From Thermoplasmata archaeon (GTDB taxonomy: Archaea > Thermoplasmatota > SW-10-69-26 > JACQPN01 > JAJPHT01), in the NCBI GenBank assembly GCA_034667685.1, contig JAXDQU010000099.1:1-10539 (forward strand): 10,539 nt of DNA, given 5' to 3'. The position numbers were made by a program, and so were the translations under genes. Below are positions 1-10,539 of the stretch, piece after piece. Numbering within the stretch: position 1 is the stretch's first letter; the number at the start of each line of letters is the position of its first letter. The notes under the pieces are model-generated. The model saw only the letters and a program-made list of their open reading frames with translations. It did no database searches and was not told the origin of the DNA.

Positions 1-76
1 CGGGAACTGGGGAAGAAGGGGTCGGACCCCGTCTTCCCCAGTTCCCGTCTTCCCCCCGCTTCCCCTCTTCCCTTCG
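1..76. repeat. Palindromic repeat element with ~8-bp degenerate (NNN)TTCCC units, probably truncated by the window edge
   Basis: 1-16 CGGGAACTGGGGAAGA is the exact reverse complement of 32-47. The inner GGGGTC-G-GACCCC (18-30) continues the stem after one mismatch (17/31). 48-76 adds further TTCCC units up to the S8 stop codon. Confidence 0.85.
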
Positions 77-1867
77 TCAAGCGCGTCGTCGCAGCGCCGC
101 TCCGATCGCGCACGCGGTGCCGACGCACACCGCGCCCACGAGGAAGGGCTGCGCGCTCACGATGCTCAAGACGCGCGAGGCGCCGGACTGCGGCGTGAGG
201 AATCCGCCCTGGGGCACGAACGGATTGTGGCCGCGCAGGGCGGCGGGCACGTCGACGACGCGCTCGGCGCGCACCACGACGCTGCCCTCGAGGTCGTAGG
301 CCGAGCCGGGAAGCACGCCGCTGGGGCGCGCGCGCACCACGTACGCGCCCGGCGCGACCGCGCGCGCCAGGTGCAGGCTGCCCGCGCCGTCGGCCTCGAA
401 GGGGAACGAGCCCTCCGCGCCCACGAGGGAGGCGTCGAGGCGGCCCGGGCCGCTCCAGTTGAGCCAGAGGTCCGCGCGCACGCCGCCGGCGGGCACGGCG
501 ACGGGGATCGTGATATCACTGGCGGGCGGGAGGTCGGGCGCGCCGCTCTGCGCGAGCACGAGGCCCGCGGCGCTCAGGATCGTGCCGCTCGCGGAGACGG
601 GGACGGGCGTCTCGACGACGACCAGGTGGCGGCCGGCCTCCATGGCGTTGGCCGCGTCGAGCGCCGCGGCGACGTCGAGCATGCCGTAGCCGGTGCCCGC
701 GTCGGGGCCCGCCGCATCGAGGTCGCGCGCGGTGCCAGTGAGGATCGCGGCGACGCTCTGCGGCGCGAGCGAGGGGTGTGCGTCGAGGAGCAGCGCGGCG
801 GCGGCGGCGACCTGCGGTGCGGCCATGCTCGTGCCGTTCATCTCGACGTAGTACTGCGCCTCCGGCGCCGACGAGCGGGCGCTCGCGGCGTTGGCGCGCG
901 CGCTGAAGATCGCGGTGCCCGGCGCGGCGAGGTCGGGCTTGACCCACGGCAGGGGCTGGCGGTCGCCGTCGGTGGCGGGGCCGCGGCTGCTGTAGGGCTC
1001 GGCGTGCCCCTCGGCGCTCGCGGCGGCCACGGTGAGGACGTTGGGGTTCGTGGCCTCGGTCGTGAGCGTGGCCTGCCCGTCGGCGCCGCGGTTGCCCGCG
1101 CTGAAGACGACGACGAGCCCGTCGGCCACGAGCGCGTCGGAGGCGCGGATCACCGGGTCGTTGGGATCGTAGTGCGCGTCGGGTTTCTCGCGGCCCCAGG
1201 AGTTGGACACGACGCGGACGTCGTACTCGGCGTGGTGGGCGTGGAGCCACGCGAAGGCGCGCACCGCGGTGGTCGTGGTGAAGCTCGCGCTGATGTCGAC
1301 GGGAAGGAGCTTGGCGCCGGGCGCGAGGCCGTGCAGGCGGGCGTCACGGCTCATGGCGCCGTTGCCCGCGACGATGCCCGCGACGTGCGTGCCGTGGCCG
1401 TCCGCATCGCCGCGCCCGCCGTCCACCGTGCCGTCGTCCTCGACGCGCACGGCGTCCACGACGCGCCCCGCGAAGCCCGGGTGCTGCGCGTCGAGGCCCG
1501 AGTCCACGAGCGCGACGGTGACGTTCCTGCCCGTGGGCCAATCCGTGGCGCCCGGGGGCGGGTCCGCGTGGTCGATGGCGCGGGCGCGATCCAGCAGGAG
1601 GGTGACGGGCTCCTCCTCGTACACGCCCGCGACGTTGGGCAAGGCGCGAAGCGCCTCCAGATGAGCCGCGTCGCCCTCGACGAGGGCGACGCGAGCGAAG
1701 GGGAAAGCCTCGACGACGCGCGTCTGCCCGAAGAGTGACCCCACCGCGGGCGGCGCGCCGTCGAAGCTCACCAGGCGCCGGGCTGGCCCGTCCGCGGCGC
1801 TCGCGGCCGGCAGGAGAACCGGCGCGAGCAGCAAGAGCGCGAGACCGAGGAGGGCAGCGCGGCGCAC
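77..1867 (-). CDS. Secreted, C-terminally anchored S8 family (subtilisin-like) serine peptidase
   Basis: Signal peptide MRRAALLGLALLLLAPVLLPAASA and a short pro-domain. Triad motifs VALVDSG (Asp), HGTHVAG (His) and GTSMAAP (Ser), oxyanion SAGN and KPDLAAPG. C-terminal beta-rich domain, then a hydrophobic helix and RRRA. GTG start. Confidence 0.95.
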   Translation of the reverse strand: MRRAALLGLALLLLAPVLLPAASAADGPARRLVSFDGAPPAVGSLFGQTRVVEAFPFARVALVEGDAAHLEALRALPNVAGVYEEEPVTLLLDRARAIDHADPPPGATDWPTGRNVTVALVDSGLDAQHPGFAGRVVDAVRVEDDGTVDGGRGDADGHGTHVAGIVAGNGAMSRDARLHGLAPGAKLLPVDISASFTTTTAVRAFAWLHAHHAEYDVRVVSNSWGREKPDAHYDPNDPVIRASDALVADGLVVVFSAGNRGADGQATLTTEATNPNVLTVAAASAEGHAEPYSSRGPATDGDRQPLPWVKPDLAAPGTAIFSARANAASARSSAPEAQYYVEMNGTSMAAPQVAAAAALLLDAHPSLAPQSVAAILTGTARDLDAAGPDAGTGYGMLDVAAALDAANAMEAGRHLVVVETPVPVSASGTILSAAGLVLAQSGAPDLPPASDITIPVAVPAGGVRADLWLNWSGPGRLDASLVGAEGSFPFEADGAGSLHLARAVAPGAYVVRARPSGVLPGSAYDLEGSVVVRAERVVDVPAALRGHNPFVPQGGFLTPQSGASRVLSIVSAQPFLVGAVCVGTACAIGAALRRRA

Positions 1868-1925
1868 GTCCCCGTGCTCTCTCGTTCGCCGCCATCAACG
1901 GCGAGGCGAGGCGCCCCCTGATCAA

Positions 1926-1980
1926 GGGAGCGTGGGAGCTTGGGAGGAACGGGCGCAGGGCCCCAAGGGACCTGGGACTC
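1926..1980. repeat. Short degenerate 8-bp tandem repeat plus GGGAC units
   Basis: GGGAGCGT-GGGAGCTT-GGGAGGAA at 1926-1949. CTTGGG (1939-1944) can pair with CCCAAG (1962-1967). GGGACCT-GGGACTC lies just before 1980. Confidence 0.45.
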
Positions 1981-3881
1981 TAGGCGTGGGTCTGGTAGCT
2001 GCCCGCGAGCTTCCAGTTCTCGCCGCCCGTGCTGTCGGGAGGCGAGATGGGCGTGCCGCCGGGCACCGGGACGGGCAGGCCCGCCTGGTTCTGATAGCTC
2101 CCGGCCTGCGTGTGGACGATCTCGACCTTCCAGTCGCCGCCCACGACGCCCTCGACGGTGAGCGTCGCGGTGCCCTTGCCGTCGGCGCCGTTGGTGACGG
2201 TCTTGGGCGTCATGGCGACCATCGAGCCGTTGGGCGCGGTGACGTGGATGTCGTAGCCGTCCGGCGTCGCGGTGTAGCCCGTGGGCGCCTGCGCGTCGGT
2301 CCACGTCAGCGTGAGGTTGAGCGAGCCGGTGGCGGTGCCGGGTAGCGTGATCGTCTGCGCGCTCGTCGCCTTGGCCGCGGTCGTGCCCTTCATCTCGGGC
2401 AGCGTCTGCGAGGTGAGCGCCGCCGTGGAGAGCAGGTCGCCGCTCCCCGTGGAGGGCGTGACCTTCTGCGCCGGGACCACCGCGCCCGCGAGGACGACGG
2501 CGGGGATCAGGAGCAGGATCAGCAGCGCGGCGACGACGCCGACGGGGAAGCGGCTGCGGCGCTCGGGCTCCGCGGTCGCGTCCTTGGTCTTGCGGGTGAG
2601 GATCCAGTTGTAGAGGATGAACGCGCCCGCGCTGGCGAAGCCGATCGAGGCCATGATGGCCCAGTAGAGCTCGGGGCGGCCCAGCTCGACGCCGAACTTG
2701 GCGTACAGGTCGCCGCCCACCTTGGCGCCCAGGAACTGGCCCACGCCGATGGGGATGAAGCCGTAGCCCAGGAAGGTGCTGACCTTCTCGGCGGGCGCGA
2801 TGCGCGAGACGTACGCGAGCCACGCGGGGTACGTGATCAGCTCGCCGATGCTGTAGATGACGACGCCACTCGCGAAGAACAGGCTCGTGCTCGTGAAGCC
2901 GATCATGACGAGGCCCACGGCGTAGACGAGGACGCCCGTCGTGATGAGCGTGAGGGGCTTGAAGCGCGTCGCCAGGGGCGCGATCAGCGGGGCGCCCACG
3001 ACGATGACGAGCGGGTTGAGCGTCTGGAGGTAGAGCTCGTTGAACCAGCCCGGCATGCGGTGGAAGTCGTCCATGTACGCGGGCAGGAACGAGAGCACCA
3101 GGCCGTACATGAACCAGAAGCCGGCGTAGATCGCCATGAGCACGAGGAAGCTCGGGTAGTGGCGGATCTCGCCGAGCACGCGCATGCTCTCCGTGAAGCT
3201 CTTGTCCTTCTGCGGCGCGCGCAGGTTGCGGAAGATGAAGAGCGAGACGAGGATGTTGAGGCCCACGAGGGCGGCCGAGACGGCGAACGTCGTGCGGAAG
3301 AGGCGCACGTCGCCCTGCTGCCAGCCCATGATCGTGCCCACGAGGCCCAGGCCCAGCGGGAAGATGAGCGCGCCCAGGTTGATGCACGCGTAGTAGATGG
3401 AGAACGCCAGGCTGCGCCTGTCGTCGGTCGAGGTCTGCGTGACGATGGAGGCCGGGATCGGTTTGAAGATGCCCGCGCCCACGCCGATGAGCAGGATGTA
3501 GGCGACGACCATCCACGGCGCGGTCGTCAGGAAGCTCATCGTGTAGCCCGCGACGAGGAGCGCGAAGACCAGCACGAGGCTCGACCGGTAGCCGAACTTC
3601 TCGGTGAAGGGCGAGGCGACGACGGGCACGGCGTAGAGGAGCAGGAAGAGCAGCGCGCCGAACGTGGCCGCCAGCGAGGTGGCCGCGACGTTGGTCATGC
3701 CGGTGCCCACGAACACGCTGCGCATGAACACGGTCGACACGGCGGCGAACGAGTAGTACGCGCCGCGTTCGAGCAGCTCGATCCCGTTGACGACCCAGAA
3801 GGTCTTCGGGAAGGCGAAGGCGCCGCGCATGCGCTCCTTCAAGGTGGGCTTCGCGTCGGGGGTAGCAGCCGGGCTCGACAC
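1980..3881 (-). CDS. POT/PTR-type MFS oligopeptide:H+ symporter with an additional TM helix and a C-terminal Thr/Gly-rich domain
   Basis: ELLERGAYY matches the POT ExxERxxYY motif. Also GAGIFKP and FSIYYACINLGA, with about 12 hydrophobic segments. Start reassigned to GTG at 3881 (VSSPAATP), ~30 bp downstream of TTTTAA. The upstream 121 codons of the ORF-track call overlap the + strand gene at 3990. Confidence 0.9.
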   Translation of the reverse strand: MSSPAATPDAKPTLKERMRGAFAFPKTFWVVNGIELLERGAYYSFAAVSTVFMRSVFVGTGMTNVAATSLAATFGALLFLLLYAVPVVASPFTEKFGYRSSLVLVFALLVAGYTMSFLTTAPWMVVAYILLIGVGAGIFKPIPASIVTQTSTDDRRSLAFSIYYACINLGALIFPLGLGLVGTIMGWQQGDVRLFRTTFAVSAALVGLNILVSLFIFRNLRAPQKDKSFTESMRVLGEIRHYPSFLVLMAIYAGFWFMYGLVLSFLPAYMDDFHRMPGWFNELYLQTLNPLVIVVGAPLIAPLATRFKPLTLITTGVLVYAVGLVMIGFTSTSLFFASGVVIYSIGELITYPAWLAYVSRIAPAEKVSTFLGYGFIPIGVGQFLGAKVGGDLYAKFGVELGRPELYWAIMASIGFASAGAFILYNWILTRKTKDATAEPERRSRFPVGVVAALLILLLIPAVVLAGAVVPAQKVTPSTGSGDLLSTAALTSQTLPEMKGTTAAKATSAQTITLPGTATGSLNLTLTWTDAQAPTGYTATPDGYDIHVTAPNGSMVAMTPKTVTNGADGKGTATLTVEGVVGGDWKVEIVHTQAGSYQNQAGLPVPVPGGTPISPPDSTGGENWKLAGSYQTHA

Positions 3882-3909
3882 GGGGATCGGGCAGGCACTC
3901 GATCGGGGG

Positions 3910-3922
3910 CTTAAAAGGACTT
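3910..3922 (-). promoter_or_regulatory. BRE/TATA-like promoter of the MFS gene
   Basis: Minus strand AAGTCCTTTTAAG, a rare AT-rich patch ~30 bp upstream of GTG 3881. Confidence 0.65.
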
Positions 3923-3989
3923 CTTGGGCGCGCCTTGACCGGGAGCTTGCCGCGAAGCGTTCAAGTGGGGTCCCCAGCATGCGCGCGCG

Positions 3990-4238
3990 ATGCTCCAGAA
4001 GCTGCGCTCCCGCCACAGCATCGACCTGCCCGTCGAGCGCTGGGGGCGCCGCCGTCCGACGCTGGCGATCATCGGCATCCTGGCCGTCGTCTTCCTGCTG
4101 CTGCCGCTCCTGATCGCGCTGATCTCCGGCGCGGCCCGGGTCACGCGCGCCGAGGGCATCGCCGCCGCCGTGGGCCTCCTGCTCCTGGTCCTCATCGTGG
4201 GCGCCCTCCGCGGGAAGCCTGGATGGAATAGGCGATAG
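3990..4238 (+). CDS. Small hypothetical membrane protein (2 TM, 82 aa)
   Basis: Two long hydrophobic stretches with basic flanks and GC-rich third codon positions. AAGCGTTCAAG lies ~25 bp upstream. Fills the gap before mscL. Confidence 0.75.
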   Translation: MLQKLRSRHSIDLPVERWGRRRPTLAIIGILAVVFLLLPLLIALISGAARVTRAEGIAAAVGLLLLVLIVGALRGKPGWNRR

Positions 4239-4276
4239 GCGCAAGGTTTGTTCGCGGGTGGCCGTTTGCCGGCCGC

Positions 4277-4675
4277 ATGGCCACCGCCACCGCGACCGCC
4301 GCCGAGCCCCAGCGCCTCAGCCTCTTCGCCGAGTTCCGCGCCTTCCTTGACAAGTACGGCGTGATCGGCCTCGCCATCGCGTTCGTGATCGGCAGCGCCC
4401 TCACCGTGCTCGTCAAGGCGGTCGTCACCGACCTGCTCATGCCCTTCGTGGGCCTCATCACGCCCGAGGGCGGCTGGCAGCAGGCCGTCCTCTACGTGCC
4501 GCCGCTCCCGGCCGGCTCGAACCCCGCGGACCCCGCGTTCAAGCTCCCGGCCCACACGCTGGCCCTGGCATGGGGCGACCTCCTCGCCAACGCGGTGAAC
4601 TTCATCATCATCGCGGCGTTCGTCTTCCTCGTGGCGAAGTTCGTCCTCCGCCAGAAGGAAATCGGCAAGCTCTGA
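4277..4675 (+). CDS. mscL: Large-conductance mechanosensitive channel MscL family protein
   Basis: N-terminal FAEFRAFLDKYGVIGLAIAFVIG, DLLMPFVG and TM2 WGDLLANAVNFIIIAAFVF match MscL patterns. AAGGTTTGTT at 4243-4252 is a candidate promoter. Confidence 0.92.
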   Translation: MATATATAAEPQRLSLFAEFRAFLDKYGVIGLAIAFVIGSALTVLVKAVVTDLLMPFVGLITPEGGWQQAVLYVPPLPAGSNPADPAFKLPAHTLALAWGDLLANAVNFIIIAAFVFLVAKFVLRQKEIGKL

Positions 4676-4730
4676 CTCCTTCGAGTCCCGCACCAGAACG
4701 GAGTTGGGCCATCCGGACCCAGACGCCGCC

Positions 4731-4973
4731 GTGCGCTCGCACCCCGTCGTCGGCGTCTTCTTCCTCCTCGTGGGCGCCGCGCTGGTCCTCCTGGGCGCGT
4801 TGGCCGGCAGCTACGTCCCCGGCTTCCTCCGCGGCCTGCCGCTCCCGCCCGAAATCGTCATCCCGCTGCTCCTCTGGCAGCTCGCGACGTGGGCCATCCT
4901 GTTCGGGTTCTTCTTCCTGCGCCCGCGCGTGCGCCGCGGCCGGCATGCCCCGCGCGTGACGCCGCGCGTGTGA
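4731..4973 (+). CDS. Small hypothetical membrane protein (2 TM)
   Basis: Two hydrophobic segments and an Arg-rich tail. GTG 4731 is preferred over in-frame TTG 4704, but the start is uncertain. Stop is convergent with the DRG stop (2-bp gap). Confidence 0.7.
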   Translation: MRSHPVVGVFFLLVGAALVLLGALAGSYVPGFLRGLPLPPEIVIPLLLWQLATWAILFGFFFLRPRVRRGRHAPRVTPRV

Positions 4974-4975
4974 GA

Positions 4976-6094
4976 TCAGCGGCGCAGCACGAGCGTCAGG
5001 ACGTCGAGGTCGCGCAACTTGTGCTCGATCCCCACGATCTGGTTGTCGAACTTCGCCGAGGGACCGGAGACGATCGCGTAGCGGAACTTGAGGCGGAAGT
5101 CGCGGTGGAGCGCGTCGCAGACCATGCCGACGTCGGAGCCTTCCTTGATGACGAGCGGCACGTCCATGTCGGCCTCGCCGCCCTGCGGCTTCATGAACAC
5201 GCGCATGAACCGCAGCTCCTCGTACATCTTGTCCTTGAGCGCGTCGATGCCGAGCCCCCTCTTCGCGGCGATGGGCACGACGGGCCAGCCCTTGTCGTTG
5301 AACATCTTGATCGTCGACTTCGTGTACTCGACGTCCTGGATGTCCACCTTGTTGAGCGCGACCATGGCCTGGATGTAGGTGCGGTTCCCGGCGAGCACGT
5401 CGACGAGCTCGTCGACCGTCGCGTCCTGGCGCACGACGACGTCGGCGTTGACGATGCCGTACTCCTTGACCATGTCCTTGACGACGTCCTCGTCGAGCCC
5501 CTTGCTCTGCGGCACGGTGAAGTTGACGTTGATGCCGCCGCGCATGCGCGACTTGTAGAGCTTGATGTCGGCCGGCGCGCGGTTGAGGCGGATGTTCGCG
5601 TCGTACAACTCGTCGACGATGACGAAGATCTGCTCGGGGTGCAGCGCGTCCGCGATGAGCAGCACGAGGTCGGTCGTGCGCACCACGGCGATGACCTCGC
5701 GCCCTCGGCCCTTGCCGCCCGCCGCGCCGCGGATGAGACCCGGCAGGTCGAGGATCTGGATGTCGGCGTGCTTGTGGTGCAGCATGCCCGGGATGCACGT
5801 GAGCGTCGTGAACGCGTAGGCCGCGACCTCGCTCTCGGTGCCCGTGAGCTTGTTGAGCAGCGTCGACTTGCCCACGCTCGGAAAGCCCACGAGCGAGACG
5901 CTCGCCATCCCGCTCTTCTTGACGTCGTAGCCGCCCTGCCCGCCTCCGCCGCCGGCCGCCGCGCGCTTCTCCTTCTCCTCGCGCATGCGGGCGAGCTTCG
6001 CCTTGAGCTTCCCGATGTGGCCCTGCGTGGCCTTGTTGTACTGCGTCTTGCCGATCTCCGCCTCCACGGCGGCGATGTCGTCGTCCAGCGTCAC
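4976..6094 (-). CDS. drg: DRG/Rbg-family (OBG superfamily) GTP-binding protein with C-terminal TGS domain
   Basis: N-terminal YNKATQGHIGKLKAKLA, G1 GFPSVGKS, G2 YAFTT, G3 DLPG, GKGRGREVIAV, G4 NKVD and a TGS-type C-terminus (SAKF..QIVG..HKLRDLDVL). Confidence 0.96.
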   Translation of the reverse strand: MTLDDDIAAVEAEIGKTQYNKATQGHIGKLKAKLARMREEKEKRAAAGGGGGQGGYDVKKSGMASVSLVGFPSVGKSTLLNKLTGTESEVAAYAFTTLTCIPGMLHHKHADIQILDLPGLIRGAAGGKGRGREVIAVVRTTDLVLLIADALHPEQIFVIVDELYDANIRLNRAPADIKLYKSRMRGGINVNFTVPQSKGLDEDVVKDMVKEYGIVNADVVVRQDATVDELVDVLAGNRTYIQAMVALNKVDIQDVEYTKSTIKMFNDKGWPVVPIAAKRGLGIDALKDKMYEELRFMRVFMKPQGGEADMDVPLVIKEGSDVGMVCDALHRDFRLKFRYAIVSGPSAKFDNQIVGIEHKLRDLDVLTLVLRR

Positions 6095-6127
6095 AGGGGA
6101 TTTCGGGCGGGGAGGCGGCCTTCGCCG

Positions 6128-6140
6128 TGATAAGCGTTTG
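6128..6140 (-). promoter_or_regulatory. BRE/TATA-like promoter of the DRG gene
   Basis: Minus strand CAAACGCTTATCA, ~34 bp upstream of GTG 6094. Confidence 0.6.
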
Positions 6141-6150
6141 CCGCTTGCGG

Positions 6151-6420
6151 AGCCTCAGCCTCAGCCTCCGCCTGTAGCCTCAGCCTCAGCCTCAGCCTCA
6201 GCCTCCATCCTTCCAGCCACAGAGGACACAGAGGAGCACAGAGGAACGAGAAAAATCGCCTCTGTGTCCTCTGTGGCTGGAGGAGTCAAGGCTACAGGCT
6301 GAGGCTAGGGCTGAGGCTGAGGCTGAGGCTGAGGCTGAGGCTGAGGCTGAGGCTGAGGCTGAGGCTGAGGCTGAGGCTGAGGCTGAGGCTGAGGCTACAG
6401 GCGGAGGCTGAGGCTGAGGT
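6151..6420. repeat. Nested palindromic element: (AGCCTC)n arm, 9-mer hairpin core, (GAGGCT)n arm; MITE/REP-like
   Basis: 6153-6205 is the exact reverse complement of 6367-6419 (53 bp), including the variant unit CGCCTGT/ACAGGCG. The right arm has 14 consecutive GAGGCT units (6313-6396). TTGCGG flanks both sides (6145-6150, 6421-6426). Confidence 0.93.
6212..6281. repeat. REP-like hairpin built of CACAGAGGN 9-mers, copy 1
   Basis: TCCAGCCACAGAGGACACAGAGG (6212-6234) pairs perfectly with 6259-6281 (23 bp). A third CACAGAGG unit lies in the loop. Confidence 0.93.
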
Positions 6421-6524
6421 TTGCGGGCTCGGGCCGTCCGCCTGCCTGCGCCGCTCCGGACCACGTCTGGATCAGCGCGCGACGCATCGCCCGATGGCGA
6501 GCGAGTCCCCCCGAGGGTTGCTCC

Positions 6525-6535
6525 AAAACCCTTGA
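6525..6535 (+). promoter_or_regulatory. BRE/TATA-like element upstream of the wHTH gene
   Basis: AAAACCCTTGA, ~38 bp upstream of ATG 6574. Same pattern as the other upstream boxes. Confidence 0.5.
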
Positions 6536-6573
6536 GGTGCCGCCGGGGCGCGGTCGGCCCATCCTCGGAAGGG

Positions 6574-7254
6574 ATGCATGTGAAGACCAAGGAAGAAGCC
6601 CTCGAGCTGGACGCGCGCCGCCACATCTACGAATACATCCTCGCCACGCCGGGCACGCACCTGCGCGGCGTGCACCGCGCGGTCAAGCTTCCCTTCGGCC
6701 AGGTGCTCTACCACCTCAACTACCTTGAGAAGCTGGACCTCGTCGTCGTGAAGAAGGACGGCAAGTTCTCGCGCTACTTCGTGAAGAACCTGATCGGCCG
6801 CAAGGAGAAGGACGTCATCAGCGTCCTGCGCCACGAGGTGCCGCGCACGATCAGCGTGCTGCTCCTCTTCCGCAAGGAGATGAGCCACAAGATGATCCTG
6901 GAGCACGTCGCGGTCTCCCCCTCGACCCTTTCGTTCCACCTGGCGAAGATGGTGGACGCGGAGGTCGTGTCGCGCGAGGCGCGCGGGCGCGAGAGCATCT
7001 ACCGCCTCGTGGACGAGCCGGCCGTCACGCGCACGCTGATCCGCCACCGCGCGAGCTTCCAGTGCGGCGTCGTCGACCGCTTCTGCGCCATGTTCGAGAC
7101 GCTCGCCGCGGGCGAGGGCGAGGAGCGCGTCGTCCCGCCGCAGGAGCCGGAGCGCGCCACCGAGCTGGTGCGGCTCGTCCTCGCGGCGCCCGAGGCGCCC
7201 ACGACGCCCGTGGAGCTGCTGCCCGCGCCCGAGCAGGCCATGCCCGGGCTCTGA
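6574..7254 (+). CDS. Archaeal-type double winged helix-turn-helix transcriptional regulator (ArsR-like, COG3398-type)
   Basis: RRHIYEYILATPGTHLRGV...GQVLYHLNYLEKLDLV and a second HTH, VSPSTLSFHLAKMVDAEVV..EARGRESIY. Start is ATG 6574 or GTG 6580. The ORF-track extension from 6421 is not protein-like. Confidence 0.9.
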   Translation: MHVKTKEEALELDARRHIYEYILATPGTHLRGVHRAVKLPFGQVLYHLNYLEKLDLVVVKKDGKFSRYFVKNLIGRKEKDVISVLRHEVPRTISVLLLFRKEMSHKMILEHVAVSPSTLSFHLAKMVDAEVVSREARGRESIYRLVDEPAVTRTLIRHRASFQCGVVDRFCAMFETLAAGEGEERVVPPQEPERATELVRLVLAAPEAPTTPVELLPAPEQAMPGL

Positions 7255-7309
7255 CACCCCCCGGTATTCTCGGCGCACCGGCCGACCATGATCGTTTGAT
7301 CTCCCGCGA

Positions 7310-7391
7310 CTTTCAGCCACAGAGGACACAGAGGTCACGGAGGCGACTTTCTCTCGTCCTCTGTGACCTCTGTGTCCTCTGTGGCTGGAAG
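7310..7391. repeat. REP-like hairpin built of CACAGAGGN 9-mers, copy 2 (possible terminator between convergent genes)
   Basis: 7310-7343 pairs with 7358-7391: a 34-bp stem with two G-T wobbles and three 9-mer units per arm. The loop is CGACTTTCTCTCGT (14 nt). Confidence 0.93.
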
Positions 7392-7420
7392 GCGGCCCGC
7401 ACCCCAAGGGAAGGAAGACG

Positions 7421-8632
7421 TCACTCGCGCACGACGCGATATCCTTTCTCGGCGAGCGCCTTCACGACCTCGGCGGCGTGCGCCTGGCCGCGCGTACCCA
7501 GCGTGAGCCGCACCTCGGCCTTGCCCAGCGCGACGTCGCCGCGCATGCGGTCGTGGTCGATGCTGTCCACGTTGGCGCCCGTCGCCGCCACCGCCGCGAG
7601 CAGGTCGCGCAGCGCGCCGGGCCGGTCGTCGAGCGTCGTGCGCAGGCGCACCATGCGGCCGGTCTGGAGGAGGCCGCGCTTGAGCACCTGGTCGACGAGC
7701 GTCACGTCGATGTTGCCGCCCGAGCAGACGACCGCCACCTTCTCGCCGGGCCGGACCTTGACCTTGCCCGAGAGGAGCGCCGCGAGCGCCGTGCCGCCCG
7801 CCCCTTCCACGAGCGTCTTGGCGCGCTCCAGGAGGTGCAGGATGGCCAGCGCGATGTCGTCGTCGTCGACCTTGACGTGCTCGTGGACGTGCTTGCGGAT
7901 GATGGGGAACGTCATCTCGCCGATGCGGCGCGTGGCGAGGCCGTCGGCGATCGTGTTGACGCCGGGCAGCGTCTGGATCGTGCCCTTGTCGAGCGAGTCG
8001 GGGAGCTTGGCCGCGCCCGCGGGCTCGACCGCGACGATGCGCACGTCGGGGCGCTTCGCCTTGATGGCGCTCGCGACGCCCGCGATGAGGCCGCCCCCGC
8101 CCACGGGCACGAGCACCGTCTCGACGCCCGGAAGGTCGTCCAGGATCTCCAGCCCGAGCGTGCCCTGCCCCGCGATGACGAGCGGGTCGTCGAAGGCGTG
8201 CACGAACGTCTGGCCGCGCTCGCGCCCGATCTCCTTCGCCTTGGCCTCGGCCTCGTTGTAGTCCTTGCCGAAGAGCACGAGGTCCGCGCCGTAGCCGCGC
8301 ACCGCCTCCGCCTTGGTCAGGCTCGCGCGCTCGGGCATCACGATGCTGGCGGGGACGCCCACGAGCCGGGCCGCGAGCGCGACGCCCTGCGCGTGGTTGC
8401 CGGCGCTGGCCGCGACGACGCCGCGCGCGCGGACCGCGGGGTCGAGGCTCGCGATCTTGTTGTACGCCCCGCGGATCTTGAACGAGCCCGTGCGCTGGAG
8501 GTTCTCCAGCTTCAGCCACACCTCGGCGCCCGTCATCTCGCTCAGCGTGGCGGAGGGCTCCAGGGGCGTGTGGTGCGAGACGCCCGCGAGGCGCTTGCGC
8601 GCGGCCTCGAAGTCGGCCAGGCTCGGCTCCAT
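7421..8632 (-). CDS. ilvA: Threonine ammonia-lyase (PLP-dependent) with a single C-terminal ACT domain
   Basis: KLENLQRTGSFKIRGA (PLP lysine), SAGNHAQG, GQGT, PVGGGGL, ADGL and SGGN. ACT-like LDDRPGAL...GANV C-terminus. Confidence 0.96.
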   Translation of the reverse strand: MEPSLADFEAARKRLAGVSHHTPLEPSATLSEMTGAEVWLKLENLQRTGSFKIRGAYNKIASLDPAVRARGVVAASAGNHAQGVALAARLVGVPASIVMPERASLTKAEAVRGYGADLVLFGKDYNEAEAKAKEIGRERGQTFVHAFDDPLVIAGQGTLGLEILDDLPGVETVLVPVGGGGLIAGVASAIKAKRPDVRIVAVEPAGAAKLPDSLDKGTIQTLPGVNTIADGLATRRIGEMTFPIIRKHVHEHVKVDDDDIALAILHLLERAKTLVEGAGGTALAALLSGKVKVRPGEKVAVVCSGGNIDVTLVDQVLKRGLLQTGRMVRLRTTLDDRPGALRDLLAAVAATGANVDSIDHDRMRGDVALGKAEVRLTLGTRGQAHAAEVVKALAEKGYRVVRE

Positions 8633-8639
8633 CGCGCGC

Positions 8640-9509
8640 TCAACGGGGGTGCCGCGGAAGAAGCCTTCGGGCGACGAGCGCCCCGAGCGCGACGGCCGCG
8701 ATCGCGAGCGGAGCCGGGGGCAGCGGGCTGACGCGCGCGATGGGCGCGGGGCCCTGGCCCGTCACCTCGATCTCGCCGAAGGCCATGCGCGCCTTCGGGT
8801 CGATCGTGAGGTTCGCGGTGCCGTTGCCCCAGCCGACCTCGACGTGGCCGCTGGGATCGACGCTCTCGTTGAACGTCCACGAGTAACGGAAGTCGCCCCG
8901 CTCGTCGGTGGGGATCGGCTCGCAGACGTTGTTGGCCGCGTCGCCCTGCGGCGGGCAGATGCGGTCGCCGTGCGCGTCGACCCACGTCAGGTGGAGGTAC
9001 GTGAGGTGCGGCTTCGCGTTGAGCGTCGCGCCGTTCTCCGAGTAGGCCGGCACGCGCTCCACGAGCCGGCCGCTGACGCTCACGCGCCCCTCCCAGATCG
9101 GCTGGAGGCGGTCGGTGCAGGGCGCCCCGTGCCACGTCGCGGGATAGACGAGCGTGAAGTCGGTGCGGCGGTAGAAGGGATCGAGGTCGTGCGTGGCGGT
9201 CGCCTTGCCGCCCGGCCCCTCCAGCGTCACGGTGATCGCGCCGCGCGGGTCCGCGTCGTGCAGGTTGAACGAGCCGATGAAGAACCCGTAGCAGTCGGTG
9301 CCGAACGTCGTGGGGCTCGCGATGACGTTGGGCGCGCTGAGCGTCGCGTTGATCGCGCCGTTGACGATCGGCTTCCCGTCCGCGTCGATCGCGCGCCCGT
9401 AGACGAGGTACGTCGACCCGAAGTCGCCCGTGATGGGCGCGATGAGGTTCTGCGCCGCCGCGACGGGGATGGCGAGCGCGAGGAGGACGAGGAACGGAAG
9501 GGCGCGCAC
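8640..9509 (-). CDS. Secreted or surface protein with two tandem beta-sandwich (carboxypeptidase-regulatory-like) repeats and a C-terminal membrane anchor
   Basis: Signal peptide (V/M)RALPFLVLLALAIPVAAA from GTG 9509. YGRAIDADGKPI and TD.xG.F motifs. C-terminal SPLPP, hydrophobic helix and RR tail. Ends 7 bp upstream of ilvA. Confidence 0.8.
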   Translation of the reverse strand: MRALPFLVLLALAIPVAAAQNLIAPITGDFGSTYLVYGRAIDADGKPIVNGAINATLSAPNVIASPTTFGTDCYGFFIGSFNLHDADPRGAITVTLEGPGGKATATHDLDPFYRRTDFTLVYPATWHGAPCTDRLQPIWEGRVSVSGRLVERVPAYSENGATLNAKPHLTYLHLTWVDAHGDRICPPQGDAANNVCEPIPTDERGDFRYSWTFNESVDPSGHVEVGWGNGTANLTIDPKARMAFGEIEVTGQGPAPIARVSPLPPAPLAIAAVALGALVARRLLPRHPR

Positions 9510-9537
9510 GGCAGCCCCCGACGCCGTGGCGAGGGTC

Positions 9538-9549
9538 ATCAAGGTTTTC
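9538..9549 (-). promoter_or_regulatory. BRE/TATA-like element for the surface protein (and possibly ilvA)
   Basis: Minus strand GAAAACCTTGAT, ~28 bp upstream of GTG 9509. Confidence 0.5.
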
Positions 9550-9554
9550 TTCCT

Positions 9555-9619
9555 GGGGCTCTGGGCTCAGGACTCCAGGCTCGGGACTCCGGAGCCCAGA
9601 GTCCTGAGTCCCGAGCCCC
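9555..9619. repeat. Palindromic heptamer micro-array
   Basis: GGGGCTC TGGGCTC AGGACTC CAGGCTC GGGACTC, then CG, then GAGCCCA GAGTCCT GAGTCCC GAGCCCC: five forward and four inverted heptamers. Confidence 0.88.
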
Positions 9620-9643
9620 GCGTTGCGGCGAGATCCGAAAGCC

Positions 9644-9654
9644 AAAGGTCTTGA
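9644..9654 (+). promoter_or_regulatory. BRE/TATA-like element for the 9685/9919 gene pair
   Basis: AAAGGTCTTGA, ~30 bp upstream of ATG 9685. Confidence 0.5.
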
Positions 9655-9684
9655 CCCCGGCGCGACTCCCCCAAGATCGGATGG

Positions 9685-9909
9685 ATGCACGTGAGCAGCG
9701 GCTTTCTCCTCCTTGAGACCCTGCCGGGGCGCGAAGCCCACGTCTTGGACGCCTTGGGCCGGATCCCGGCCATCACCCACCGGAGCATTCTCTACCCCAA
9801 CGCCATCGCGCTGAAGGTGGAGGCGCCCGACGTCGCCCGCGTGCAGGCGGACCTGAAGCGCATCGAGGGCGTCACCGCCGCGCGGCTCTACCGCGCGCGC
9901 AACACGTGA
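9685..9909 (+). CDS. Stand-alone Lrp/AsnC ligand-binding (RAM)-like domain protein
   Basis: GFLLLETLPGREAHVLDALGRIPAI...IALKVEA...LKRIEGV has the ferredoxin-like pattern of archaeal stand-alone RAM proteins. 74 aa with no HTH. Confidence 0.7.
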   Translation: MHVSSGFLLLETLPGREAHVLDALGRIPAITHRSILYPNAIALKVEAPDVARVQADLKRIEGVTAARLYRARNT

Positions 9910-9913
9910 GGTG
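9908..9913 (+). promoter_or_regulatory. Shine-Dalgarno site GAGGTG
   Basis: Overlaps the upstream stop codon and lies 5 nt before ATG 9919, suggesting an operon-internal gene. Confidence 0.7.
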
Positions 9914-9918
9914 CGAAG

Positions 9919-10488
9919 ATGCCCCGCGGCGTCACCGACCAGTTCCTCGGCCTCCTGAAGCGCGAGCGCCGCGCCCAGGTGCGCACGCTCGTCCTCATGC
10001 TCCTCGCCCTCGCGCCGGCCTACTTCATGGCCGAATTGACCGACCAGCCCCTCCTGGGCCTCGTGGTCTGGATGGGCGTCGCGGCCCTCGCGCTGGGCGG
10101 CGGCCTCGGACTGCTTTGGGCGCGCTGGGAGACCGGCCGCCACGAGACCTCCCTGCGCGCGGGCTGGAACGCCTGGATGCGCATGTCGCTCACCGCGGGC
10201 CGCCTCTCCGACGTCGAGCGCGCGGTGCGCCAGAAGGGCCCCGCGCTGCACGTCGAGGCCATCGGCTGGACCGCGCTCCTCGTCGCCAACGCGACGCTCT
10301 TCCTCGCGCTCTGGATGGACGCCGCCTGGGCGCTCGCCTTCGGCGCGGGCGTCACCGTCGCCAACGGCCTCGTGCTGGGCGCGCTCGCCGGCCGCGCGGC
10401 CTGGACGTACCGCTGGGTGCGCACGTTCTCCCACGCGCTCGACGGCCTGATCGCCGAAGGGCAGGTCGGGCTCTGGGGCGAGGTCTGA
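9919..10488 (+). CDS. Hypothetical membrane protein (about 4 TM)
   Basis: Two hydrophobic hairpins separated by a Trp/Arg-rich soluble segment. Good SD site and GC-rich third codon positions. No family recognised. Confidence 0.8.
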   Translation: MPRGVTDQFLGLLKRERRAQVRTLVLMLLALAPAYFMAELTDQPLLGLVVWMGVAALALGGGLGLLWARWETGRHETSLRAGWNAWMRMSLTAGRLSDVERAVRQKGPALHVEAIGWTALLVANATLFLALWMDAAWALAFGAGVTVANGLVLGALAGRAAWTYRWVRTFSHALDGLIAEGQVGLWGEV

Positions 10489-10495
10489 TCACTGG

Positions 10496-10539
10496 CGAAG
10501 GGAAGTGGGGGGCGCGGGGGGGGGGGGGGGGGGGGGGGG
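10496..10539. repeat. Start of a second copy of the GGGAAG-type element, followed by poly-G (likely artefact)
   Basis: 10496-10510 CGAAGGGAAGTGGGG matches the reverse complement of 62-76 at 14/15 positions. 24 G at 10516-10539. Confidence 0.55.

Follow-up and report, generated by a model that had tools for sequence, protein, structure and literature searches.

The described systems closest to the elements considered here are the intervening sequences (IVSs) of rRNA genes and the repetitive extragenic palindromic (REP) sequences with their REP-associated tyrosine transposases (RAYTs). Our subject is a set of palindromic micro-arrays, each a short tandem repeat followed by the same repeat in inverted orientation, in a 10,539-bp stretch of DNA from a Thermoplasmata archaeon (the window, which is the entire contig C99, JAXDQU010000099.1, of a 3.48-Mb genome in 124 contigs with 71% G+C and a completeness of 99% by marker genes). 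In Leptospira, the 23S rRNA reportedly carries an IVS with an S23p open reading frame, described by Ralph and McClelland in 1993. In Coxiella burnetii, the terminal inverted repeat of the IVS forms a long stem of 28 bp, and rRNA IVSs have been called selfish, with a mechanism given as unknown (Warrier et al. 2016, PMC4990558). REP sequences are described as extragenic palindromes, the low-copy RAYT gene being flanked by inverted repeats of its own family (Bertels & Rainey 2011, PMC3116915). Paired tandem-repeat sites are also on record from Geobacter metallireducens, where they were read as sites for IHF/HU-type regulators (Aklujkar et al. 2009, PMC2700814).

We consider it fairly likely that the micro-arrays of the window are gene-less copies of foldback cassettes that occur throughout the genome, IVS-like in build and REP/RAYT-like in working. 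A full-length cassette consists of two inverted arms of ~30–38 bp, each made of 3–6 tandem units of 6–10 bp, and of a loop with a single gene of ~110–150 codons, either IVP or GxxExxY. Such cassettes are probably selfish and mobile. Among open-access papers and preprints we found none that links IVP or GxxExxY genes to tandem-repeat hairpins, and the open-access literature agrees with the preliminary description of this DNA, made from the letters alone, to which no such system in an archaeon was known.

IVP and GxxExxY genes in hairpin loops

The genome contains four genes for four-helix-bundle proteins of the PF05635/TIGR02436 type (IVP, S23p, Avd-like), which the preliminary description had named as candidate partners of the repeats. 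Three of the four lie between inverted arrays, each of another unit family:

C124:75964-76465, IVP cassette with GGGAAG-NN arms and a perfect 43/43-bp stem
C49:4194-4556, IVP cassette with GGRCTC-N arms
C115:108-494, IVP cassette with AGCCTC arms

All three arm families also occur in the window. The fourth IVP gene adjoins a complete 41/41-bp hairpin without being bracketed by it, and in all four genes the stop codon touches an arm. When the bracket test was applied to other genes of 80–200 amino acids, 4 of 1252 passed, two of which are neighbors of the C49 IVP gene and one a doubtful call inside an array. Further genes between arrays of the same family (a methyltransferase, a KGG-repeat protein, membrane proteins and a TrmB-like regulator) were rejected as cargo and are regarded as normal genes of the host that stand between two independent hairpins. 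Compared with solved structures, IVP subfamily A matches 2gsc, the pentameric Xcc0516, at 1.3e-18. IVP genes have been noticed previously in cas loci (PMC3936711; PMC10910872) and as relatives of Avd (PMC10053308). A role of the present IVP genes in a diversity-generating retroelement, with Avd as the model, was rejected, since PF00078 reverse transcriptase has no match in the genome and the loops hold no long gene.

The GxxExxY genes (TIGR04256 = PF13366), a second candidate of the preliminary description, bear it out without exception: the genome has three, on C21, C55 and C11, and all three are placed between inverted arms, which on C55 are made of CACGAAG-N units. The proteins match Pfam PDDEXK_3 (PF13366), listed as a family of unknown function (PMC3424549), at 1e-26 to 1e-39, and residues G17, E22, Y25, D62, E72 and K74 are invariant in 15 GxxExxY sequences. 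The predicted model has a pLDDT of 95.5 and is aligned by VIA-align at Z 5–7.5 to many proteins of the restriction-endonuclease fold, to which all its best matches belong, with no single nearest family; Foldseek returned nothing for it at E <= 0.001, and the sole match of the sequence among solved structures was a Cas4 chain at E = 0.44. As judged by sequence and model together, the GxxExxY cargo has a PD-(D/E)xK nuclease fold with an invariant D...E.K triad and is a predicted nuclease.

Hairpins of the window

We analyzed the window by inverted-repeat search, by Tandem Repeats Finder, and by folding of single-stranded DNA against 200 shuffles per element. These analyses confirm the five palindromic micro-arrays previously proposed (1-76, 6151-6420, 6212-6281, 7310-7391 and 9555-9619), and none of the 200 shuffles folded as well as the native sequence for any of the four single hairpins or for the nested composite. 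The further claim that none lies within a coding sequence holds as well, as none of the five overlaps a codon-usage gene call. The elements are:

1-76, GGGAAG-NN 8-mer hairpin, arms 1-23 / 25-47 by inverted-repeat search (23 nt, 96% complementary)
6151-6205, left outer arm of the composite, nine units of the AGCCTC hexamer, period 6 by Tandem Repeats Finder
6200-6293, inner hairpin of the CACAGAGG-N 9-mer family, arms 6200-6234 / 6259-6293, nested between the AGCCTC arrays
6288-6419, right outer arm, AGGCTG array of ~20 units, an inverted and longer copy of 6151-6205
7307-7394, CACAGAGG-N 9-mer hairpin, arms 7307-7343 / 7358-7394 (37 nt, 92% complementary)
9555-9619, GGRCTC-N 7-mer hairpin, arms 9555-9586 / 9588-9619 (32 nt, 84% complementary)

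The element at 1-76 (fold z = -6.3; period 8/18 at 28-72) directly follows the stop of an S8 peptidase gene and is truncated by the contig start, with extra right-arm units extending to position 76. Over 49 nt, it has 86% identity to an arm of the IVP-bearing cassette C124:75964-76465. In the composite (6140-6430, z = -18.4), the outer arms 6153-6205 and 6367-6419 are 100% complementary over 53 nt, with a period of 6 at 6296-6419 (20.5 copies), and their unit family is that of the arms around the IVP gene C115:108-494. The inner hairpin (z = -9.4 for 6205-6290) has a period of 9 at 6218-6245, and the same pairing of AGCCTC outer with CACAGAGG-N inner arms recurs at six further loci (C13, C16, C17, C21, C32 and C86). 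The hairpin at 7307-7394 (z = -11.4 for 7300-7400; period 9 at 7318-7343 and 7358-7383) sits where a helix-turn-helix (HTH) regulator gene and a threonine dehydratase gene converge, and is one of 41 CACAGAGG-N loci in the genome. The hairpin at 9555-9619 (z = -6.75 for 9550-9625; period 7/14/21 at 9557-9620) occupies the spacer of two diverging genes and is one of 73 loci of the GGRCTC-N family, which also forms the arms around the IVP gene C49:4194-4556.

Gene-bearing and gene-less copies share arm families: both IVP and GxxExxY arms belong to the unit families of the gene-less hairpins, and for six of the seven cassettes with a gene, 5–43 other loci match the arm (>=80% identity over >=25 nt), the 1-76 element and the AGCCTC arm of the window being among the matches to IVP cassette arms. 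The related genome G003 has a GxxExxY cassette with a 47-nt arm identical to that of a gene-less hairpin.

Support from reads, the lack of which would have counted as a refutation in the preliminary description, was obtained in part. Contigs from three separate public runs cover 7314-7390; public short-read contigs end at 6141 and 6427, the borders of the AGCCTC array, and leave the number of units there unconfirmed. That these contigs stop short of the AGCCTC arrays, together with the poly-G found at contig ends, could suggest an artefact of assembly or sequencing. We regard the chance of this as negligible, because the same families occur at hundreds of sites inside long contigs and in independent genomes of relatives, and because of the three runs that cover 7314-7390.

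A genome-wide class of intergenic hairpins

Genes were called on codon usage with a caller written for the source genome, which gave 3487 genes covering 87% of the sequence and leaving 13% as spacer. A scan for hairpins (8-mer seed, stem >=16, loop <=260) found 671 loci in the genome as compared to 108 in a composition-matched control genome simulated with a Markov-2 model, and 314 loci with periodic arms as compared to 21. By motif classification, 312 loci were assigned to 13 tandem-unit families, and 296 of the 312 are intergenic:

Period 6: AGCCTC, CGGAA-K, GAACGT and GGGCA-R
Period 7: GGRCTC-N
Period 8: GGGAAG-NN, CACGAAG-N, ACGCCA-N, GGAATCTC and GAACCCGA
Period 9: CACAGAGG-N
Period 10: GGGAGGC
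Period 12: GGGCTCGAAAGC

The remaining 359 loci are unclassified; 157 of them are intergenic, with further families among them. The median stem is 25–38 bp in each family, independent of unit length. Arrays of the four unit types of the window number 360 in the genome and 0 in the control, and 332 of the 360 fall in the 13% that is spacer; the preference for spacers over coding sequences stated in the preliminary description is upheld. Periodic sequence was found at 47 of 248 contig ends and in 106 of 5000 random 40-mers (2%), and the census is a lower bound because contigs end inside such elements. About ten ACGCCA-N copies (e.g. C33:1635-1845, C55:6165 and C79:101659) have a one-sided A/T-rich tail of ~29 nt, and these copies therefore have an orientation.

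The suggestion of a genome-wide, REP/RAYT-like process with a protein encoded outside the window is supported, as far as its genome-wide extent goes, by this census. That they are ordinary REP/REPIN elements or miniature inverted-repeat transposable elements (MITEs) moved by a known transposase (a Y1/HUH RAYT or an insertion sequence) encoded in an unassembled part of the genome would agree with their being many, palindromic and extragenic, and with the breaking of the assembly at repeats, by which mobile genes may be missing. However, PF01797, the mark of the Y1 HUH RAYT that had been offered as a further candidate partner, has 0 matches in this genome at 99% completeness, and the same search was positive in 6 of 14 control genomes. 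Of the 312 elements, 2 have GTAG and 15 have CGTC close to the base of the stem, and the unrelated arms of at least 13 families do not fit a single transposase. We consider this explanation very improbable.

The hairpins are distributed unevenly around genes. Proximity to gene 3' ends is favored (186 of 263 hairpins at a distance of no more than 30 nt), and gene starts are avoided (only 28 of 283 in the first 30 nt upstream), and the side preferred depends on the family: ACGCCA-N has 55 3' sides versus 14 5' sides, GGRCTC-N 44 versus 86, and CGGAA-K 10 versus 33. This distribution, together with the reading of paired 3–5-unit arrays as IHF/HU-type sites by Aklujkar et al. (PMC2700814), is what one would expect if the hairpins were selected regulatory or structural signals of the host (protein-binding sites, signals of RNA processing or stability, terminators) and the genes merely tolerated the location. 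Several observations speak against such a function: (i) orthologous spacers of the same genus are empty or hold another family; (ii) T-runs are rare (no family has them at more than 10 of 55 3' sides) and many hairpins lie in divergent promoter spacers; (iii) at least 13 unrelated unit sequences would need equally many binding proteins; and (iv) the side preference is explained equally well by where insertions are tolerated. Altogether, we find a host function improbable. The terminator reading in particular was rejected, given the rarity of T-runs and the many hairpins at 5' sides.

Relatives and other phyla

Both gene families are concentrated in the taxonomic family to which the window belongs: among the genomes of it searched, IVP genes are present in seven of eight and GxxExxY genes likewise in seven of eight; the nearest public relatives carrying IVP are labeled Thermoplasmatota. 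Subfamily-A IVP loci in relatives are bracketed in 13 of 16 cases, with units that vary from locus to locus, and the classical subfamily-B IVP genes are mostly unbracketed. When genomes were sampled at one per species, an alignment-based scan gave 80 IVP loci, whose hosts are archaea and members of at least eight bacterial phyla; Thermoplasmatota, Gemmatimonadota, Planctomycetota, Myxococcota, Acidobacteriota, Binatia and others are represented. Periodic-arm brackets were found at 41 of these 80 loci as compared to none of 80 windows shifted by 1 kb. GxxExxY loci in relatives have inverted-repeat brackets in 23 of 31 cases, as compared to none of 30 controls, and CAC[AG]G[AG]G-type units, which resemble the 9-mers of the window, occur at no fewer than eight of the bracketed loci. 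As the flanks of 18 IVP cassette loci, which had a conserved look, gave no rRNA match when compared with Rfam, these are not rRNA IVSs. At one Gemmatimonadota locus (L048), the IVP reading frame continues through the right arm. The genome G035 belongs to a different family of the phylum; its hairpins (L157 and L158) are made of GGCGCAA-type 7-mers, and no subfamily-A IVP or GxxExxY match was obtained.

Presence and absence in relatives, the comparison that the preliminary description had called for, agrees with mobile elements: orthologous spacers of the same genus are empty or carry other families. The spacer orthologous to 6151-6420 is empty in G003; in G001 it is taken by another composite, and in G002 by a hairpin of the ACGCCA type. 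The spacer of G003 that is orthologous to the one around 7310-7391 lacks the hairpin. A contig from an RNA library of a relative (90–95% alike) joins 7231 to 7423 via 12 other letters, and the 7310-7391 hairpin is therefore missing in that relative.

Cassettes can also be followed as units. One Acidobacteriota genome contains cassette copies with identities of 96% (620 nt) and 95% (793 nt), and in the duplicated Acidobacteriota IVP cassettes (L056/L088 and L084/L095) homology stops at the arms. L095 is flanked by a direct repeat of ~13 nt, and L088 by an inverted repeat, a setting that would fit the arrival of the cassette in a small hairpin.

Nesting and the direction of causality

Where the outer hairpin leaves at least 15 nt of slack, the inner hairpin of a nested pair lies within 10 nt of the outer center in 18 of 20 cases. 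The window composite 6140-6430 is one of the nested cases, and at least six different cross-family pairings occur (e.g. C110:6733-6913, C106:147776-147943 and C9:27177-27368). Nesting at palindrome centers could mean that causality is reversed, i.e. that host slippage together with fold-back or template switching at stalled forks makes the hairpins, and that the genes are independent homing-type selfish genes that enter existing tips. Classical IVSs are placed at rRNA helix tips (PMC4990558), the flanks of two bacterial cassettes resemble a split small hairpin, and G035 is rich in arrays without having either gene, all of which would be in line with this explanation. The same is true of five Gemmatimonadota genomes (L048, L071, L063, L076 and L079), in which an IVP cassette directly follows the stop of the same conserved gene with arm units that differ in each.

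The hairpins, however, form discrete families with constant unit order, constant loops and identical alleles repeated at unrelated loci; C14:8899 and C97:8569, for example, have the same arm of 35 nt. Such repetition indicates copying rather than local de novo growth. Beyond the reading frame, BLAST of the cassettes shows no conserved ends specific to the four IVP paralogues, and entire cassettes, arms included, are duplicated as a unit. Reversed causality is therefore unlikely in our view, although we rate it above the other alternatives.

Proposed mode of spread and points against it

For the foldback cassettes, we propose that gene-less hairpins would be spread or maintained in trans by the product of a cognate gene, as REPs are by RAYT. 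In such a scheme, the GxxExxY nuclease might cut hairpin or cruciform DNA at the arms, an IVP pentamer could bind the repeat arms, and insertion would prefer the tip of existing hairpins, while the arms may change fast through slippage and copying between arms.

A number of observations weigh against foldback cassettes that move in this way. First, no movement step was observed, and no target-site duplication is established, the one suggestive case being the possible direct repeat of ~13 nt (flanks of two families and a few cassettes inspected). Neither IVP nor GxxExxY is known as a transposase, no catalytic activity is on record for IVP, and the fold matches of GxxExxY are only middling (Z 5–7.5). 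Second, gene-bearing copies are few: 7 are found next to ~300 gene-less ones, and for several large families, CACAGAGG-N (41 loci) and ACGCCA-N (39 loci) among them, the assembly contains only gene-less hairpins. Searches of the genome by BLAST with the four IVP cassettes gave matches to the arms only, the internal sequence being unshared; derivation of the gene-less hairpins by deletion is not supported because only the arms are shared, and that origin was rejected. Third, genes and hairpins do not track each other cleanly across nine genomes sampled. In G035, periodic hairpins number 12.7 per 100 kb and neither gene was found; G015 gave six GxxExxY matches and no hairpin in 100 kb, and G007 one IVP gene and no hairpin; 39 of the 80 loci of the wider IVP scan and 8 of the 31 GxxExxY loci fail the bracket test. 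Finally, 44 of 81 inner branches are unresolved in a quick IVP tree, so that neither co-divergence of genes and arms nor orthology of the Gemmatimonadota cassettes at the shared site can be read from it; the sole supported clade noted is that of the four paralogues of the genome itself (SH-aLRT 97).

A wider reading is that IVP, as a pentameric four-helix-bundle binder of nucleic acid, and GxxExxY, as a minimal PD-(D/E)xK nuclease, each drive undescribed, structure-targeting foldback elements in archaea and at least eight bacterial phyla, with insertion at hairpin tips, fast rebuilding of arms and hundreds of gene-less copies, the rRNA IVSs being copies that landed in rRNA helices. We put this forward tentatively and ourselves incline to doubt it. 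The elements themselves offer a testable lead on rRNA IVSs, whose nature has, like the role of S23p, been a question since the early 1990s: a stem with a gene in it, as in the IVSs, here occurs away from rRNA and has hundreds of gene-less relatives. The second cargo gene, with its conserved nuclease motif, provides concrete proteins and DNA substrates for testing, and the arrangement of a repeat family with a cognate gene would have arisen more than once, with different folds, and also in archaea. At a practical level, the elements fragment short-read assemblies of high-GC soil genomes and create false open reading frames. Finders of CRISPR arrays may also be misled, given that IVP genes have been reported as CRISPR-linked (PMC3936711, PMC10910872).

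Other features of the window

Eleven genes were called within the window, among them:

77-1867, minus strand, called gene (S8 peptidase)
1980-3881, minus strand, called gene
4976-6094, minus strand, called gene
6580-7254, plus strand, called gene
7421-8632, minus strand, called gene
8640-9539, minus strand, called gene
9685-9909, plus strand, called gene

Pfam matches in the window are to an S8 peptidase, an MFS/POT transporter, MscL, a DRG-type GTPase, a regulator of the HVO_0163/ArsR type and a pyridoxal-phosphate (PLP)-dependent threonine dehydratase-like enzyme; no match to Rfam was found for the window. A TATA-like motif (ATAAGC / TATAGCC / TAAAGCC, then TTT) upstream of the GTPase gene (window 6095-6150) is kept in all four genomes compared (the source genome, G001, G002 and G003), and the repeats begin 10–45 nt beyond it. 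Two further repeat features were noted:

1926-1946, GGGAG-type 8-mer, 2.6 copies, without an inverted partner (Tandem Repeats Finder)
10489-10506, start of a GGGAAG-type element (the sixth element) at the right contig end, then 33 G

The degenerate 8-mer trace reported earlier at 1926-1980 was thus recovered as a tandem repeat and not as a hairpin: the segment folds no better than chance (z = -0.47; 55 of 200 shuffles equal it). Several other contigs end in poly-G or poly-C, and such termini are probably a sequencing artefact at contig ends induced by repeats.

Comparison with known systems

The elements resemble both REP/RAYT systems and IVSs, yet lack features that define each of the two families. 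As in IVSs, a PF05635 gene lies in the loop of a stem, in a cassette of ~430–600 nt, and gene-less IVSs are described too. A PF05635/TIGR02436 gene within a terminal inverted repeat is found in the gene-bearing copies only, however, the window copies being gene-less, and the elements of the window lie between protein genes and not in helix 25 or 45 of 23S rRNA, where IVSs are inserted, to be cut out of the transcript by RNase III. The arms of tandem 6–10-bp units, the hundreds of gene-less copies, the second gene GxxExxY and the archaeal host further distinguish them from IVSs.

As described for REP/RAYT, there are several families with separate cognate genes per genome, inheritance is mostly vertical and turnover is fast, and the elements are short extragenic palindromes in high copy number (312 loci, 296 intergenic). 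They lack both the Y1 HUH gene (PF01797) and the GTAG/CGTC tag of REPs and REPINs; the proteins here are of the PD-(D/E)xK fold and of the four-helix-bundle type, and the arms are internally tandem-repetitive. Like MITEs, the gene-less copies have terminal inverted repeats, small size and no coding capacity, but the partners that share their ends encode IVP or GxxExxY in place of the autonomous transposase of a MITE. The short tandemly repeated repetitive (STRR) sequences of cyanobacteria are intergenic tandem 7-bp arrays in several sequence families and do not form inverted pairs; by this description, the likeness to them is limited to a period of 7 in 1 of the 13 families.

Compared by description, the sites of G. 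metallireducens are alike in that they are opposite-strand pairs of 3–5 tandem 7–9-bp units each, with 8 to 24 pairs per class in several classes and a sister species without them; the main text of that account draws no link to IVP or GxxExxY genes (PMC2700814). The FB and Galileo elements of Drosophila share the long terminal inverted repeats made of internal tandem repeats and the many non-coding copies, but are eukaryotic, kilobase-sized and served by a P-superfamily transposase, and no homology is implied (PMC3573991, PMC4079207). The elements are thus best filed as foldback cassettes, defined by tandem-repeat arms and an IVP or GxxExxY gene.

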